This document shows, one piece after another, positions 52,673-58,047 of a DNA stretch of 64,000 nt (position 1 is its first letter; every line of letters begins with the position of its first letter). The stretch comes from an uncultured Gemmatimonadales bacterium. GTDB lineage: Bacteria > Gemmatimonadota > Gemmatimonadetes > Gemmatimonadales > GWC2-71-9. The notes beneath the pieces are model-generated. The model did no database searches, was not told where the DNA came from, and saw only the letters and a program-made list of their open reading frames with translations. The DNA lies in assembly GCA_963695555.1 (NCBI GenBank), contig CAVOGR010000007.1, positions 160,001 through 224,000 on the forward strand, written 5' to 3'. Position numbers and translations under genes: made by a program.

Positions 52673-53242
52673 GTGGCACTCGTGACCGAATCGCGGAGGG
52701 GCTTCACCCTGGTCGAAGCGGTGACCGTGATGGTGGTGATGGGCCTCATGCTGGCCATCGGCATCCCCTACCTTCGGGTCAGCCCGTACCAGGAGGTGCG
52801 GAGCGCCGGGCTGCAACTGGCGCGTGACCTCGAGGCGGTCCGCACCCGCGCCCTCGCCACTCGCAGCACCGCCCGGATCGTGTTCGATGCTGCGGGCGGG
52901 AGCTACACCGGGTTCCTCGACGACGACCGGGACGGAGTGCTCACCGAGAGCTCGGTGGAACAGAGCGCGCTGCGCGCCTTTGCCGGCAATCGTGCGCTGG
53001 GAAGCAGCGTCACCTTCGGAAGCGGCGTCGCCGGGCCGGTGCCGACCGACACTGCGACGGGCCCGATCACCTTCATCAATGACCGGGTGGAATTCGACGG
53101 CCGCGGGGTGACCACACCGTTCGGCACGCGTGGGGTGGTCTACTTGGTCAATCAGCGCGAGCCGACCGCGGTCGCGGCCGTTGCCGTATCGGGCGCCGGG
53201 TCGCTCAAGCTCTGGGTCTACCGGGAGGGAGCATGGCAGTGA
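52673..53242 (+). CDS. FimT/GspH-like minor pilin
   Basis: RRG|FTLVE prepilin site; L..DL...R..A; V.FDGRG; VSGAG motifs. Confidence 0.88.
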   Translation: MALVTESRRGFTLVEAVTVMVVMGLMLAIGIPYLRVSPYQEVRSAGLQLARDLEAVRTRALATRSTARIVFDAAGGSYTGFLDDDRDGVLTESSVEQSALRAFAGNRALGSSVTFGSGVAGPVPTDTATGPITFINDRVEFDGRGVTTPFGTRGVVYLVNQREPTAVAAVAVSGAGSLKLWVYREGAWQ

Positions 53243-53616
53243 GGAAGGATGCCGGTTTCAGCTTGATCGCGGTACTGGTCGCGATCGTGTTGCTCTCTAT
53301 CGGGCTGCTCGCGATCTCGCGCGCAAGCACCCAAGTCCTGGCCATGCATACGTCCGCGGCCTCGCGCTCGGCAGGGCTCGCGGTGGCCCGAACCCACATG
53401 GAGACCCTCCGGAGCCAAGATCCGGCCACCATCGTCTCGCAGAGCGAGGTGGCCGTGGACGCCGAGGGGCAACTGGATGCCTCCGGTCCGTTTCATCGGA
53501 CCGTCGTGGTCGACAGCGTCTCCCACAACCTGAAGGCCATCCGCGTTCGGGTGACGTGGCCGCGCGCCAGCGCCCCCGTCGAGCTCGTCACGATGGCCTT
53601 CTTCAGCATCGAGTAG
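53233..53616 (+). CDS. PilV/GspI-like minor pilin
   Basis: AG|FSLIAVLVAIVLLSIGLLA; A...ME.LR; V.VTW; start 53233 or 53239. Confidence 0.82.
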   Translation: MAVRKDAGFSLIAVLVAIVLLSIGLLAISRASTQVLAMHTSAASRSAGLAVARTHMETLRSQDPATIVSQSEVAVDAEGQLDASGPFHRTVVVDSVSHNLKAIRVRVTWPRASAPVELVTMAFFSIE

Positions 53617-53624
53617 TGACCCTC

Positions 53625-54554
53625 ATGCCGTCACCCGTCGCGGGTCGCCGCGGATTTACCCTGGTGGAGATTCTGATCTCCCTGGTCATCGGGTTGATCG
53701 TGATCGGCGCCGCGATGACCTTTGCCGTCAACACGGTGCGCAGCGTCGAAGCCACCGGACTCCGCGAGGGCGTCACGCGCAACTCGCGCTTCATGGCGAT
53801 GTCGCTCGAGCGCGATTTCACTGGAACGGGTGTCGGAATCGAAAGCACCATCGCCTACGGGTCGGTGCGGGTGCGGGGCGACACGCTGCTGGTCCTCGGG
53901 GTGCCGTTCGACAGCGTGATGTCGCCGCCGTATGACCTGATTCCACCGCCAGCCGCCACCAATCCCCTGCCGGCCGGCGGCACCTGTGGCGCCACGTGCC
54001 TCGACCTGATGAAGGCCGCCGACAGCACGTTCGACCTTCAGGTCGGGGACATCGGCCGACTGCAGGTCGGCGGAGAGCGGCGGCTGCTCCGCGTCGAGAG
54101 CATGACGTCGAACGATACAGCAGTCCAGCTCGCCTTCACGCCGCTTCCCGAGATCTTCCTTCACCCGGCGAGCCTCTCGGGTGGCCTCTTGCTCGATCCC
54201 TACAACACCTACGTGCAGAAGCTCGAGCCGGTGGCCTATTGGGTGGAGTCCGGAAACCTCATGCGGGCGACCAGGGTCGAGGGCAGTGGTTCATTCAAGG
54301 GCGAGGTCGTAGCGGACGGAATCCAGTCGTGGGAGGTCAGTCTCATCTTCCAGGACGGGGACGAGCTGGACAACGCCGACCCGACGGACGGCGACCCGAC
54401 CAATGATTACGACGATATCCTGTCGATCAGAATCCGTGCCGTCGTGGCCGCCAATCGGGTGGATCGCCACGTGAATGCGGGTACGCTGTTTACCCGGTCG
54501 TACGATTGGCGCTTCACGCCGCGAAACCTCATGTACGAGCGTAACCGGCGCTAA
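53625..54554 (+). CDS. PilW/GspJ-like minor pilin
   Basis: RRG|FTLVEILISLVIGLIV; LERD...G; VADGI; terminal PRNL. Confidence 0.88.
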   Translation: MPSPVAGRRGFTLVEILISLVIGLIVIGAAMTFAVNTVRSVEATGLREGVTRNSRFMAMSLERDFTGTGVGIESTIAYGSVRVRGDTLLVLGVPFDSVMSPPYDLIPPPAATNPLPAGGTCGATCLDLMKAADSTFDLQVGDIGRLQVGGERRLLRVESMTSNDTAVQLAFTPLPEIFLHPASLSGGLLLDPYNTYVQKLEPVAYWVESGNLMRATRVEGSGSFKGEVVADGIQSWEVSLIFQDGDELDNADPTDGDPTNDYDDILSIRIRAVVAANRVDRHVNAGTLFTRSYDWRFTPRNLMYERNRR

Positions 54555-54682: not shown

Positions 54683-54712
54683 TATTGCGCAACCCGGCCG
54701 GGGCATTACCTT
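54683..54712 (+). promoter_or_regulatory. Sigma70-type promoter of csp copy 1
   Basis: TTGCGC-N16-TACCTT; near-identical to 55265-55294. Confidence 0.65.
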
Positions 54713-54721
54713 TTAGAGGCT

Positions 54722-54934
54722 TGATGCACCCAAGGGGTGCGCGCTGAGAACCGGAGATATCTGTTACAGAGGGATCTGGCTCGGAGCTGGATCCCTCGTT
54801 CTGTTTCAAGTGTTAGGCCGATCGTTTCACAAGTGGATCGGCAGCCTGCTACGAGGCCTTATCGTGGCGAATATGTCTCGGTGGTGCGGAATCTCCGAAC
54901 TCCGACGACAGCTTTTATCAAGAGGAGTACGAGT
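54722..54934 (+). ncRNA. Candidate structured csp 5' leader, copy 1
   Basis: Hairpins shared with copy 2, including GAGGGATCTGGC/GCTGGATCCCTC (54769-54797). Confidence 0.6.
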
Positions 54935-55144
54935 ATGCGTACCACCGGAACCGTCAAGTGGTTCAACGACGCCAAGGGATTTGGCTTCATCACCCCCGAG
55001 AATGGCGAGAAGGACTGCTTCGTGCACCACTCGGCGATTCAGGCAGAGGGCTTCAAGTCTCTGTCCGAGGGCGACAAGGTCGAGTTCGACGTGACCCAGG
55101 GCCAAAAGGGCCCGGCCGCGGAAAACGTCGTCAAGATCAGCTAA
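54935..55144 (+). CDS. cspA: Cold-shock protein (69 aa)
   Basis: [15 protein letters not shown] (RNP1); FVHHSAI (RNP2); GAGGAG RBS. Confidence 0.97.
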
Positions 55145-55182
55145 CGACTGATTGAGCGTCCCCGAACAGGGGAAGCAAAGGG

Positions 55183-55214
55183 AAGGCCGTCCCGAAGTTC
55201 GGGGCGGCCTTTTC
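55183..55214 (+). terminator. Intrinsic terminator after csp copy 1
   Basis: AAGGCCGTCCCGAA-G-TTCGGGGCGGCCTTTT. Confidence 0.8.
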
Positions 55215-55264
55215 CGCGTCCGGATCTGCCGGTGGTTCACACCGACCTGAACCCCGGGCCGAGG

Positions 55265-55294
55265 TATTGCGAAAACAGGCCAGGTCATTAGCTT
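55265..55294 (+). promoter_or_regulatory. Sigma70-type promoter of csp copy 2
   Basis: TTGCGA-N16-TAGCTT. Confidence 0.65.
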
Positions 55295-55303
55295 AGTGCA
55301 GCT

Positions 55304-55516
55304 TACCGCGCACCCGGGTACTGTGCGCCTGAGGACCGAGATACCGCACGAGGGATCTGGCTCAGCGCTGGATCCCTCGTCGCGTAGAGACGTTCCGCCG
55401 ACCGCGCACTAACGCCGGCTGGCAGCCTGCCGCGGGGCGTGTCCGCGGCAATGTCGACGGATGGTACGGCAACGCCGGACTCCGAAGACACAGATTCCAC
55501 CAAGAGGAGTACGGCA
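55304..55516 (+). ncRNA. Candidate structured csp 5' leader, copy 2
   Basis: GAGGGATCTGGC/GCTGGATCCCTC (55350-55378) plus covarying downstream stems. Confidence 0.6.
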
Positions 55517-55726
55517 ATGCGCACCACCGGAACCGTCAAGTGGTTCAACGATGCCAAGGGCTTCGGCTTCATCACCCCCGAGAACGGAGGCAAGGACTGC
55601 TTCGTGCATCACTCGGCGATTCAGGCCGAAGGCTTCAAGTCGCTGTCCGAAGGCGATAAGGTCGAATTCGACGTCGTCCAAGGGCAGAAGGGCCCGGCGG
55701 CGGAGAACGTGGTCAAGGTCAGCTAA
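55517..55726 (+). CDS. cspA: Cold-shock protein (69 aa), tandem paralog
   Basis: Differs from copy 1 at 3 residues; GAGGAG RBS. Confidence 0.97.
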
Positions 55727-55766
55727 CCGCTGACCGCGATCCCCTCTCACGAGGGGCAACACACCA

Positions 55767-55802
55767 GGAGCCGCCCTGCACCAGCAGGGCGGCTCCGTGT
55801 TT
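55767..55802 (+). terminator. Intrinsic terminator after csp copy 2
   Basis: GGAGCCGCCCTGC-ACCA-GCAGGGCGGCTCC followed by GTGTTT. Confidence 0.8.
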
Positions 55803-56224: not shown

Positions 56225-57811
56225 CTACCCGCCGAACTTGATGCCCTGCGCCAGCGGCAGCTCGGTGCTCCAGTTGACGGTGTTGGTCTGGCGGCGCATG
56301 TAGACCTTCCACGCATCGGAGCCCGACTCGCGGCCGCCGCCGGTTTCCTTCTCGCCGCCGAAGGCGCCGCCGATCTCGGCGCCGCTGGTGCCGATGTTCA
56401 CGTTGGCGATGCCGCAGTCGCTGCCGCGGTGCGACAGGAAGTACTCCGCCTCGCGCACGTGCTCGGTGAAGATCGCCGACGACAGCCCCTGCGGCACGCC
56501 GTTGTGGAGTCGCCATGGCCTCCTCGATCTCGGCCACCGCCTGCTGCGGCGAGGCGTCGCTTGCTGCCGTAGCCGATGATGTAGAGGATCGGCGCGAACG
56601 TCTCCTCCTGCACGATCTCGAACTCGTTCTTCGCCGCCGCGATGCACGGCTTCACGTAGTGGCCGCCCGGGTAGTCCGGGCCGTCGAGCGCTTCGCCGCC
56701 GTACAGGATCTCGCCGCCCTCCTGCCTGCACCCGCTCGATCGCATTCTGCAGATCCTCGACGGCCGCCGTGGTGACCAGCGGTCCCATCAGCGTCGTCCG
56801 GCTTCCGCGGGTCGCCGATCGCGGATGCCCTCGTAGGCCCGCGCGAGCCGCGCCGACGAGCTCGTCTCGTGATCGACTCGTGCACGATGATCCGCCGCGT
56901 GACGGTGCAGCGCTGGCCGGCCGTGCCCACCGCGCCGAACAGGATCGCCGGCAGCGCCAGGTCCAGGTTGGCGTGCGGCGTGACGATGATCGCGTTGTTG
57001 CCGCCGAGCTCGAGGATGGTGCGGCCGAGGCGCTTCCCACGACCTCGCCGACGCGGTACCCGACCTGGCAGCTGCCGGTGGCCGAGACCAGCGGGACGCG
57101 CCGGTCGTGCAGCATCCGGTCGCCGACGGTCGAGCCCTTGCCGATCGATGAGCGAGAAGATGGCCGGGTCGACGTCGTTCTCCTCGGCACACCTGCTGCC
57201 GCGATCTTGGTGCACGCGATCGCGGTGAGCGGCGTCTTGCTGGCCGGCTTCCAGAGCACGCTGTCGCCGCAGACCGCGGCGATGGCCGTGTTCCAGCTCC
57301 AGACGGCGACCGGAAAGTTGAACGCGCTGATCACGCCGACCACGCCGAGCGGATGCCACTGCTCGAACATGCGGTGGTCCGGCCGCTCCGACTGCATGGT
57401 GAGCCCGTAGAGCTGGCGCGAGAGGCCGATGGCGAAGTCGCAGATGTCGATCATCTCCTGCACTTCGCCCTCGCCCTCGGCCAGGATCTTGCCCATCTCG
57501 AGCGTGACGAGCTGACCCAGCTCGTGCTTCACCTCGCGCAGCCGGTTGCCGAGCTGCCGGACGAGCTCGCCGCGGCTCGGGGCCGGCACGCGGCGCCAGG
57601 CGAGGAAGGCCTCGTGGGCGCGGTCCACGATCCGGTCGTACTCCTCTTCGGTGACCTGCTGCACGGTCGCGATCCGCGAGCCGTCGATGGGGGTGATGAC
57701 CTCGAGCTCGGGACCGGAGCCGATCCACTCGCCGTCGAAGCCGCCCGCGTTGGTCTCCGTAATTCGCAGGCTCGCCAGGAAATCGCTCAGGACTGGGGCC
57801 GTCGTTGCCAT
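56225..57811 (-). CDS. ALDH7/antiquitin-type aldehyde dehydrogenase with multiple apparent frameshifts
   Basis: [30 protein letters not shown] and [22 protein letters not shown] are in one frame. ELGGNN, GQRCT and EETFAPILY are in other frames. Confidence 0.9.
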
Positions 57812-58047
57812 GGTTCTACCCACCGTATGTCTCGCTGGAAAGAAAGTGCTGTGTGGAGTTCTAGTACTGACGTCGGATTCTAGCATGGTCCGGCGGGCGA
57901 GGCCACTCCGCACTCAATGGGCGCTAATAGCGAACAACCCATGAAATCTGGAGATCCACGACCCGTGCCGTTACGTCGAAGTACCCGCCATCCTGGCGGC
58001 GTCGAGCCGGCTACCGTAGTTTGCCGCAGACTCCGGAGGCAATCACC

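Follow-up and report, generated by a model that had tools for sequence, protein, structure and literature searches.

A modular structured leader RNA of cold-shock protein genes in Gemmatimonadota

Two structured leaders at a tandem csp locus

The window analyzed here, a stretch of 64,000 nucleotides (nt) from an uncultured Gemmatimonadales bacterium (GenBank assembly GCA_963695555.1, contig CAVOGR010000007.1), carries two tandem cold-shock protein (csp) genes on its forward strand, each preceded by a structured leader. Both genes encode a 69-residue cold-shock protein (Csp); the two products are 96% identical and match the Pfam family CSD (PF00313, E 6.7e-32). No conserved reading frame is present in the roughly 250 nt upstream of each gene. 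The leaders are about 215 nt long, with five helical elements and a Shine-Dalgarno sequence in both (Table 1). They are about 70% identical and can be aligned end to end, and AAGAGGAGTACG stands between hairpin 5 and the ATG (54935 and 55517) in each copy. We find that this leader is a conserved RNA structure of the phylum Gemmatimonadota and that it is modular: its 3' part is found only at csp, while its 5' part also occurs before other genes.

Both leaders retain the same architecture despite their divergence. The original prediction had described five ordered elements from these two copies, and on re-reading and folding the sequence we found all of them in place. The 12-base-pair (bp) stem of hairpin 2, with its tandem U-G/G-U pairs, is identical in the two copies and only its loop differs (TCGGA versus TCAGC). 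Hairpin 3 is indeed the weaker of the two in copy 2, where it is interrupted by bulges. Stem 4 has changed on both sides with its pairing preserved, and the inner stem of hairpin 5 passes from CGGA/TCCG to CGGC/GCCG. Covarying positions between these two copies alone are thin evidence of a conserved structure.

The leaders fold more stably than most shuffled sequences of the same dinucleotide composition. Leader 1 reaches -87.8 kcal/mol (z -2.61; 2 of 200 dinucleotide shuffles as good) and leader 2 reaches -101.8 kcal/mol (z -2.69; 1 of 200). The minimum-free-energy structures of both copies contain hairpin 2, stem 4 and hairpin 5, and only that of copy 1 shows hairpins 1 and 3 as drawn. An open frame runs through leader 1 in phase with csp (54737-55144). 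We rejected it as coding because copy 2 lacks such a frame and the copies differ by indels whose lengths are not divisible by three.

In both copies, hairpin 1 is preceded by a promoter-like site, with predicted starts (near 54719 and 55301) upstream of all hairpins, and the hairpins are therefore predicted to be transcribed. Of 93 related leaders, 62 have the pattern TTGNNN-N16-18-TANNNT in the corresponding position, compared with 4 in the reverse complement and 9 in shuffles; a generic sigma-70 scan called neither of the two sites in the window. Leader 2 and portions of leader 1 are represented in contigs assembled from four metatranscriptome runs (54980-55551 in X1 record 3; 54956-55564 in X2 record 10; 54775-55178 in X4 record 25), with starts, ends and strand not readable. 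These contigs may derive from DNA carry-over, their uncovered stretches carry no meaning, and they neither favor nor disfavor any mechanism.

Table 1. Features of the two csp leaders and their genes, in window coordinates (CDS, coding sequence).
Feature	Position	Strand	Details
Promoter-like site, csp copy 1	54685..54712	+	-35 TTGCGC, N16, -10 TACCTT; predicted start near 54719
Hairpin 1, copy 1	54726..54740	+	GCACCC AAG GGGTGC
Single-stranded linker, copy 1	54741..54768	+	CTGAGAACCGGAGATA...; relatives have GGACAAGTTCCGA or ACCAGCGAACAC
Hairpin 2, copy 1	54769..54797	+	12-bp stem, C-G/U-G/G-U core, loop TCGGA; flagged as terminator-like
U-rich tail after hairpin 2, copy 1	54798..54807	+	GTTCTGTTTC, 6 T of 10
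Hairpin 3, copy 1	54817..54842	+	7-bp GCCGATC/GATCGGC; stem length variable among relatives
Stem 4 and probable pseudoknot, copy 1	54843..54867	+	CTACGA/TCGTGG 54849-54867; GCC 54844-54846 with loop GGC 54855-57
Hairpin 5, copy 1	54874..54910	+	inner CGGA/TCCG; 3' arm ACTCC 54899-54903, complementary to Shine-Dalgarno
Shine-Dalgarno and CDS, csp copy 1	54923..55144	+	AGGAGT 54923-54928; CDS 54935-55144, 69 residues
Terminator-like hairpin and T run 3' of csp copy 1	55181..55215	+	read in sequence; aligned to RF01766 terminator part
Promoter-like site, csp copy 2	55267..55294	+	-35 TTGCGA, N16, -10 TAGCTT; predicted start near 55301
Hairpin 1, copy 2	55308..55328	+	GCGCAC ... GTGCGC
Hairpin 2, copy 2	55350..55378	+	stem as in copy 1, loop TCAGC; tail GTCGCGTAGA 55379-55388, not U-rich
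Hairpin 3, copy 2	55397..55423	+	weaker, bulged; -13.1 kcal/mol for 55395-55430
Stem 4 and probable pseudoknot, copy 2	55424..55448	+	CCGCGG/CCGCGG 55430-55448; GCC 55425-55427 with GGC 55436-55438
Hairpin 5, copy 2	55452..55490	+	inner CGGC/GCCG; ACTCC 55479-55483
Shine-Dalgarno and CDS, csp copy 2	55505..55726	+	AGGAGT 55505-55510; CDS 55517-55726, 69 residues
Terminator-like hairpin and T run 3' of csp copy 2	55767..55802	+	read in sequence; RF01766 terminator part

The 3' module is conserved across the phylum

The leader is phylum-wide and not the product of a local duplication. The regions upstream of the closest csp genes carry the same elements in the same order. A covariance model of stem 4, hairpin 5 and the Shine-Dalgarno region (R1), built from 19 leaders, matches nearly all csp loci labeled as Gemmatimonadota. 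In an even sample of the phylum, R1 matches occur in 79 of 151 genomes, with one to four copies each (78 of 150 without the unpublished genome G105). Most of these genomes are metagenome-assembled, and the E-values of R1 and of the two further models used below are rough. The bacterium's own genome has R1 matches at the two window leaders only, with 81.2 and 59.3 bits; both are seed members and match by construction, and support for the family comes from the non-seed members in the 79 genomes.

The gene association of the 3' module is equally consistent. A csp gene lies directly downstream on the same strand in 50/50 inspected R1 matches (30/30 and 20/20), an outcome slightly favored by the model itself, which includes the Shine-Dalgarno sequence and six bases of the gene. 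The leader had been proposed to be lineage-specific, and its distribution agrees: of the 42 csp loci L092-L133, 40 are labeled as other phyla, and none of these 40 has an R1 match at E<=1. A match of 31 bits was found in L058, from a metagenome-assembled genome labeled Thermoanaerobaculia. BLAST of leader 1 against 61 relatives was of no use for tracing the distribution, with matches only in three other genomes of the genus; the leader is too diverged, and sequence search therefore stays within the genus.

Alignment of this wider collection of csp upstream regions, a check suggested with the original prediction, confirmed the covariation. Among 81 leaders aligned to R1, 90.2% of pair cells hold standard pairs, compared with 26-49% when the partners are slid by one to three columns, with changes on both sides at 14 of 18 pairs. 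The alignment contains 122 compensated cells against 42.8 +/- 5.0 in shuffles, and none of 500 shuffles reaches 122. The clearest covariation is in stem 4, where 94% of cells are paired and both partners vary in all six pairs; one of its pairs occurs as CG in 47 leaders, UA in 25 and AU in 1, and another as GC in 46, AU in 24 and CG in 1. A structure-blind alignment of the seed (MAFFT alone) gives 81.8% paired cells, compared with 36-45% when slid, with 12 of 20 pairs changing on both sides.

Not every csp gene carries this leader. The third csp of the same genome (G000:C12:19250-19450; locus L138:1180-1500), 76% identical, follows a leader that is shorter and unrelated and lacks the 3' module (R1 gives at most 7 bits). 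The structured leader is therefore confined to a subset of csp paralogues, much as E. coli has distinct cold-inducible and constitutive csp genes.

The leader does not belong to a cataloged RNA family, as had been supposed. Rfam 15 gives no match at the gathering score in the whole window or in 20 loci of relatives. In a permissive search, the cspA thermoregulator family RF01766 aligns to 55428-55798 and 54861-55214 with 48.2 and 45.8 bits, below the gathering score of 78; these spans are mostly coding sequence and 3' terminator rather than leader. Sub-threshold matches to sX14, CC2171 and snoRNAs were dismissed as noise. A full-text literature search returned no description of a Gemmatimonadota csp leader.

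Stem 4 is probably extended by a pseudoknot. The three or four bases just 5' of the stem (GCC in the window leaders; most relatives have CCC or GCCC) complement the first bases of its loop (GGC or GGG(C)). A pseudoknot helix of at least 3 bp is possible in 71 of 74 leaders, while the number falls to a mean of 34 (maximum 46 over 500 trials) with shuffled upstream bases and to a mean of 60.9 (maximum 68) when leaders exchange their upstream segments. Compensatory variants also occur (UCC:GGA, CUC:GAG, ACC:GGU and GCU:AGU). We regard the pseudoknot as a well-supported suggestion rather than proof, because its register varies by one base. Hairpin 3, which lies between the modules, is the more variable element. 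The 44 spacers of at least 20 nt have a mean z of -1.49, with 28 below -1; 12 of 56 leaders have a spacer that could not accommodate any hairpin.

Hairpin 5 carries a potential anti-Shine-Dalgarno sequence. Its 3' arm reads ACTCC in 52 of 81 leaders, and at least 5 bp with the Shine-Dalgarno region are possible in 59 of 77, compared with a mean of 18.6 and a maximum of 27 for shuffled arms. Variants with ACCCC accompany a GGGAG Shine-Dalgarno sequence in 6 of 7 cases; we set these aside as close kin.

These features could also belong to a purely translational thermoswitch like that of E. coli cspA, in which the whole leader refolds with temperature, freeing or masking the ribosome-binding site, and hairpin 2 has only a structural or stabilizing part. 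The ACUCC hidden in hairpin 5, with its potential to pair with the Shine-Dalgarno region, would fit such a switch, as would the probable pseudoknot (the cold form of the E. coli leader is described as pseudoknot-stabilized in the relevant part of PMC4496569) and the retention of hairpin 2 without a U tract in copy 2. A structural hairpin does not, however, explain the U tracts detailed below (56 of 78 leaders, against 4-5 in controls), nor the occurrence of the 5' module without the 3' module before rpsU and infA. Furthermore, no conserved helix encloses the Shine-Dalgarno sequence. The small hairpins seen there in the window folds (CUUUU/AGGAG and AUUCC/GGAGU) were discarded, as they are not kept in relatives, many of which have CA-rich spacers of about 15-25 nt before the Shine-Dalgarno sequence. 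We therefore consider a thermoswitch of this kind unlikely.

The 5' module and its terminator-like hairpin

The 5' half of the leader forms a second conserved module. We modeled hairpin 1, the linker and hairpin 2 from 24 leaders (R2) and refined this model further (R3). Across 68 leaders, 80.2% of cells are paired compared with 33-56% when slid; changes on both sides are seen at 13 of 17 pairs, among them all six of the hairpin 1 helix. The window copies, as seed members, score 51.4 and 41.6 bits with R2. An R2 match (E<=0.002) lies 1-55 nt upstream of the R1 match in 38 of 81 leaders. The first leader nucleotides are conserved (AGCGAT-like), and so is the linker.

Hairpin 2 resembles an intrinsic terminator in most relatives. 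It is GC-rich, its sequence varies (GGGACCUGG..., GGGGCCUGC..., GAGGGCUGGC...), and a U tract follows. With a free energy of -12 kcal/mol or lower and at least 5 T in the 9 nt after the stem as the test, hairpin and U tract are found together in 56 of 78 leaders, compared with 5 in the reverse complement and 4 in shuffles. Fixed sequence patterns fail to trace this hairpin because its stem covaries. The exact pattern occurs at 14 places in 401 genomes, 8 of them before csp and 6 in coding-like sequence, which we attribute to chance; a degenerate pattern has zero matches in 80 csp loci. Two R2 matches (L048:320-412 and L237) resemble ordinary terminators, and we counted them as false positives.

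The core of hairpin 2 is exempt from this variation. One pair is C-G in 66 of 67 leaders and another is U-G in 60 of 67, with C-G instead in 6, while the rest of the stem covaries; in alignment A8 these near-invariant pairs fall at 54775-54777/54789-54791 and 55356-55358/55370-55372. The conserved wobble suggests recognition by a protein or another contact, because it would be unexpected in a mere terminator stem.

Such recognition would also suit an element of mRNA stability or processing, whose hairpins protect the 5' end or serve as RNase substrates, with Csp binding modulating cleavage. The cspA 5' untranslated region (UTR) of S. aureus is reportedly handled by RNase III in this manner. 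Conserved AGCGAT-like first nucleotides followed by stable 5'-proximal hairpins are consistent with this explanation, as is the strict hairpin 2 core. However, stems of 6-12 bp are generally held to be short for RNase III, and both the U tract and the anti-Shine-Dalgarno arrangement are left unexplained, which makes this explanation very unlikely.

The 5' module is found before other genes of translation. In the bacterium's own genome, outside the window, it stands alone directly before rpsU (G000:C2:49644-49737, minus strand; locus L190:1501-1594; Pfam Ribosomal_S21, E 1.2e-18). This copy scores 41.7 bits with R2 and 57.5 bits with R3, the best R3 score in the genome and above both csp leaders. 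It has no 3' module, and an ortholog is present in genome G002 (L224). R3 yields 70 matches at E<=1e-5 in 55/151 genomes of the order. A csp gene follows in 59 of these (55 from the translated downstream frame and 4 inferred from a directly downstream R1 match), rpsU in 4 and infA in 2 (Pfam eIF-1a, E 8.7e-25). Two matches precede a protein family without a Pfam match (motif ...VQLGPVALT[IV]AWL...), which also lies downstream of csp in L216; one precedes a 55-residue Lys/Glu-rich frame and one an unassigned reading frame. The last has no gene behind it and adjoins a convergent tRNA-like sequence (L225, R2 44.1 bits). The loci from other Gemmatimonadales are L236 and L244 for infA, L235 and L251 for rpsU, and L226; L227 and L239; L246; and L225 for the other cases. 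Searched with Rfam 15, 10 loci in which the 5' module precedes another gene gave only a tRNA.

The 5' module thus connects the genes of three small proteins that act in RNA binding and translation initiation, namely Csp, ribosomal protein S21 and initiation factor IF-1, while the 3' module is found only at csp. Some genomes have csp directly followed on the same strand by rpsU (L048, L205, L209 and L243) or csp followed by infA (L211 and L214). There, rpsU or infA may come under the csp leader where a 5' module of their own is absent. The separate 5' module, the terminator-like hairpin 2 and the stem 4 pseudoknot are additions to the original prediction.

A module that recurs on its own might be a gene in its own right: a trans-acting small RNA of about 85 nt, running from the promoter to the hairpin 2 terminator, whose adjacency to other genes reflects shared promoters or read-through. 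The module is a complete promoter-to-terminator unit with a conserved single-stranded linker, and the L225 copy has no plausible gene behind it. Against this, csp, rpsU or infA follows immediately on the same strand in 65 of 70 matches. Between hairpin 2 and the csp genes of the window we saw no second promoter-like site, and some copies have lost the U tract while keeping the hairpin. We judge an independent small RNA to be distinctly unlikely.

Other genes surround the csp pair in the window. Those on its 5' side (52673-54554, plus strand) encode products with prepilin-type N-terminal motifs (GFTLVE..., FSLIAVLVAI...) that resemble minor pilins of type IV pili or pseudopilins of type II secretion; the last of these genes stops at 54554, leaving about 130 nt to the promoter-like site of csp copy 1. 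On the 3' side, a long minus-strand frame (56225-57913) is aldehyde dehydrogenase-like at both ends, and its Arg/Ser/Pro-rich middle resembles out-of-frame text. A second frame (56652-57728) overlaps it, and a frameshift or assembly error may be present.

A two-module model and its known counterparts

We propose that this RNA is an uncataloged modular csp leader that joins a 5' attenuator to a translation-tuning 3' domain and responds to temperature, Csp level or both; on the combined evidence, we consider this probable. From the promoter, transcription would pass through hairpin 1 and the linker to hairpin 2 and its U tract, which together would act as an intrinsic-terminator attenuator and set the fraction of transcripts that reach the gene. 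Hairpin 3, stem 4 with its pseudoknot, and hairpin 5 would then tune translation and perhaps stability. When folded, hairpin 5 would lock away ACUCC and leave the ribosome-binding site free; when melted, it would release ACUCC to mask the Shine-Dalgarno sequence. Read-through would be set by temperature, by Csp acting as RNA chaperones, or by both, in the manner of the cold-shock circuits of E. coli. These are the likeliest modulators, since we found no conserved antiterminator helix. Our alignments and searches show a conserved structure, where it occurs, which genes it precedes and that it is modular; termination at hairpin 2, the signal and a switch in translation are inferred.

Several observations weigh against this proposal. 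Alignments fitted with a covariance model lean towards the structure of that model, and the genomes are kin; therefore, the shuffle and pair counts given above overstate independence. ACUCC and the Shine-Dalgarno sequence are both conserved, so that covariation cannot test their pairing. Within the window, the U tract of copy 1 is weak (it fails the strict test) and copy 2 has none, and a few relatives also keep hairpin 2 without a U tract. The stem itself is identical in both window copies and across the genus. Loss of the U tract with a perfectly kept stem points to a sequence-specific role beyond termination, and in this bacterium's own genome hairpin 2 may not be a terminator at all. We found no conserved antiterminator pairing of the 5' end or the linker with the arms of hairpin 2: the 5' end can form at least 5 bp with upper hairpin 2 in 25 of 68 leaders (permuted mean 22.5, maximum 32), and the linker pairs with the arms no better than shuffles do. 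Finally, melting of hairpin 2 by Csp would amount to positive feedback, the opposite of the negative feedback in E. coli.

A Rho-dependent switch of the type found at E. coli cspA, cspB and cspG would place termination elsewhere, with the hairpins only masking or unmasking a rut site. This mechanism is established for csp leaders of E. coli and Salmonella, according to the portion of PMC12360218 that treats them, and many relatives have a short CA-rich spacer before the Shine-Dalgarno sequence that might be considered as a candidate. That spacer is only about 15-25 nt long. The GC skew is 0.04 to 0.22 in leader 1 and about 0 in leader 2, with G at or above C along both, and no C-rich, G-poor (rut-like) tract is visible in either window leader. 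A Rho-type switch is therefore unlikely, and the signature present instead is that of an intrinsic terminator. We consider a Rho-dependent switch highly improbable here.

A further step would be to view the 5' module as a dedicated sensor-terminator: a factor-independent counterpart of the Rho switches of E. coli, co-regulating Csp, IF-1 and S21, a small regulon of single-strand RNA binders and translation start factors, by temperature or free Csp through graded read-through of a hairpin with the conserved C-G/U-G signature. We offer this only tentatively. If true, terminator-gated cold-shock regulons would be a widespread convergent design that has gone undescribed, as it lies outside model organisms.

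To our knowledge, RNA-based control of csp genes is a textbook case, but nearly all that is known of its mechanisms comes from E. coli and a few Firmicutes. The leader described here adds a phylum-wide, well-supported RNA structure of about 200 nt that is absent from Rfam and combines five helices with a probable pseudoknot. Within it, a module that would act on transcription and is shared with rpsU and infA is distinct from a csp-specific module that would act on translation. It also yields testable predictions on how bacteria outside the established models sense cold or their supply of RNA chaperones, and the seed alignment is ready for an Rfam family.

One of the two closest functional parallels is the E. 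coli cspA 5' UTR (RF01766) with its thermosensor and cold box, likewise a long structured leader before a csp gene, with a 5'-proximal element tied to Csp feedback. Alternative folds control access to the ribosome-binding site there and would do so here; the active form in E. coli has been described as involving a pseudoknot (PMC4496569, in the part concerned with that form). There is no homology in sequence or structure between the two; the Gemmatimonadota leader is modular and contains a hairpin that resembles an intrinsic terminator.

A further parallel is provided by Csp proteins at intrinsic terminators, a known route from Csp level to read-through. In E. coli, the targets of Csp antitermination include the initiation factor operon metY-nusA-infB. 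CspE melts terminator hairpins in E. coli, and Csp (CspE, CspA and CspC) alter read-through at intrinsic terminators, as outlined in PMC7858274. In B. subtilis, CspB and CspD are described in a section of PMC8307031 as favoring termination at some intrinsic terminators, and cold shock boxes occur in the cspB and cspC UTRs. In contrast to the arrangement proposed here, those terminators are not known in the leaders of the csp genes themselves.

The Rho-dependent switches of cspA, cspB and cspG are the other close functional parallel. As summarized in a passage of PMC12360218 on Delaleau et al. 2024, csp leaders of E. coli and Salmonella combine temperature-dependent refolding, Rho-dependent termination, Shine-Dalgarno exposure and Csp feedback. 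Premature termination in a csp leader is thus coupled to exposure of the ribosome-binding site, is set by temperature and Csp, and extends over several cold-shock genes. The Gemmatimonadota leader differs in that its stop signal resembles a factor-independent hairpin with a U tract, and in that its partner genes are rpsU and infA rather than rnr and deaD. Switches in csp leaders are known, while this RNA family, its intrinsic-terminator-like module and its small set of associated genes are new.

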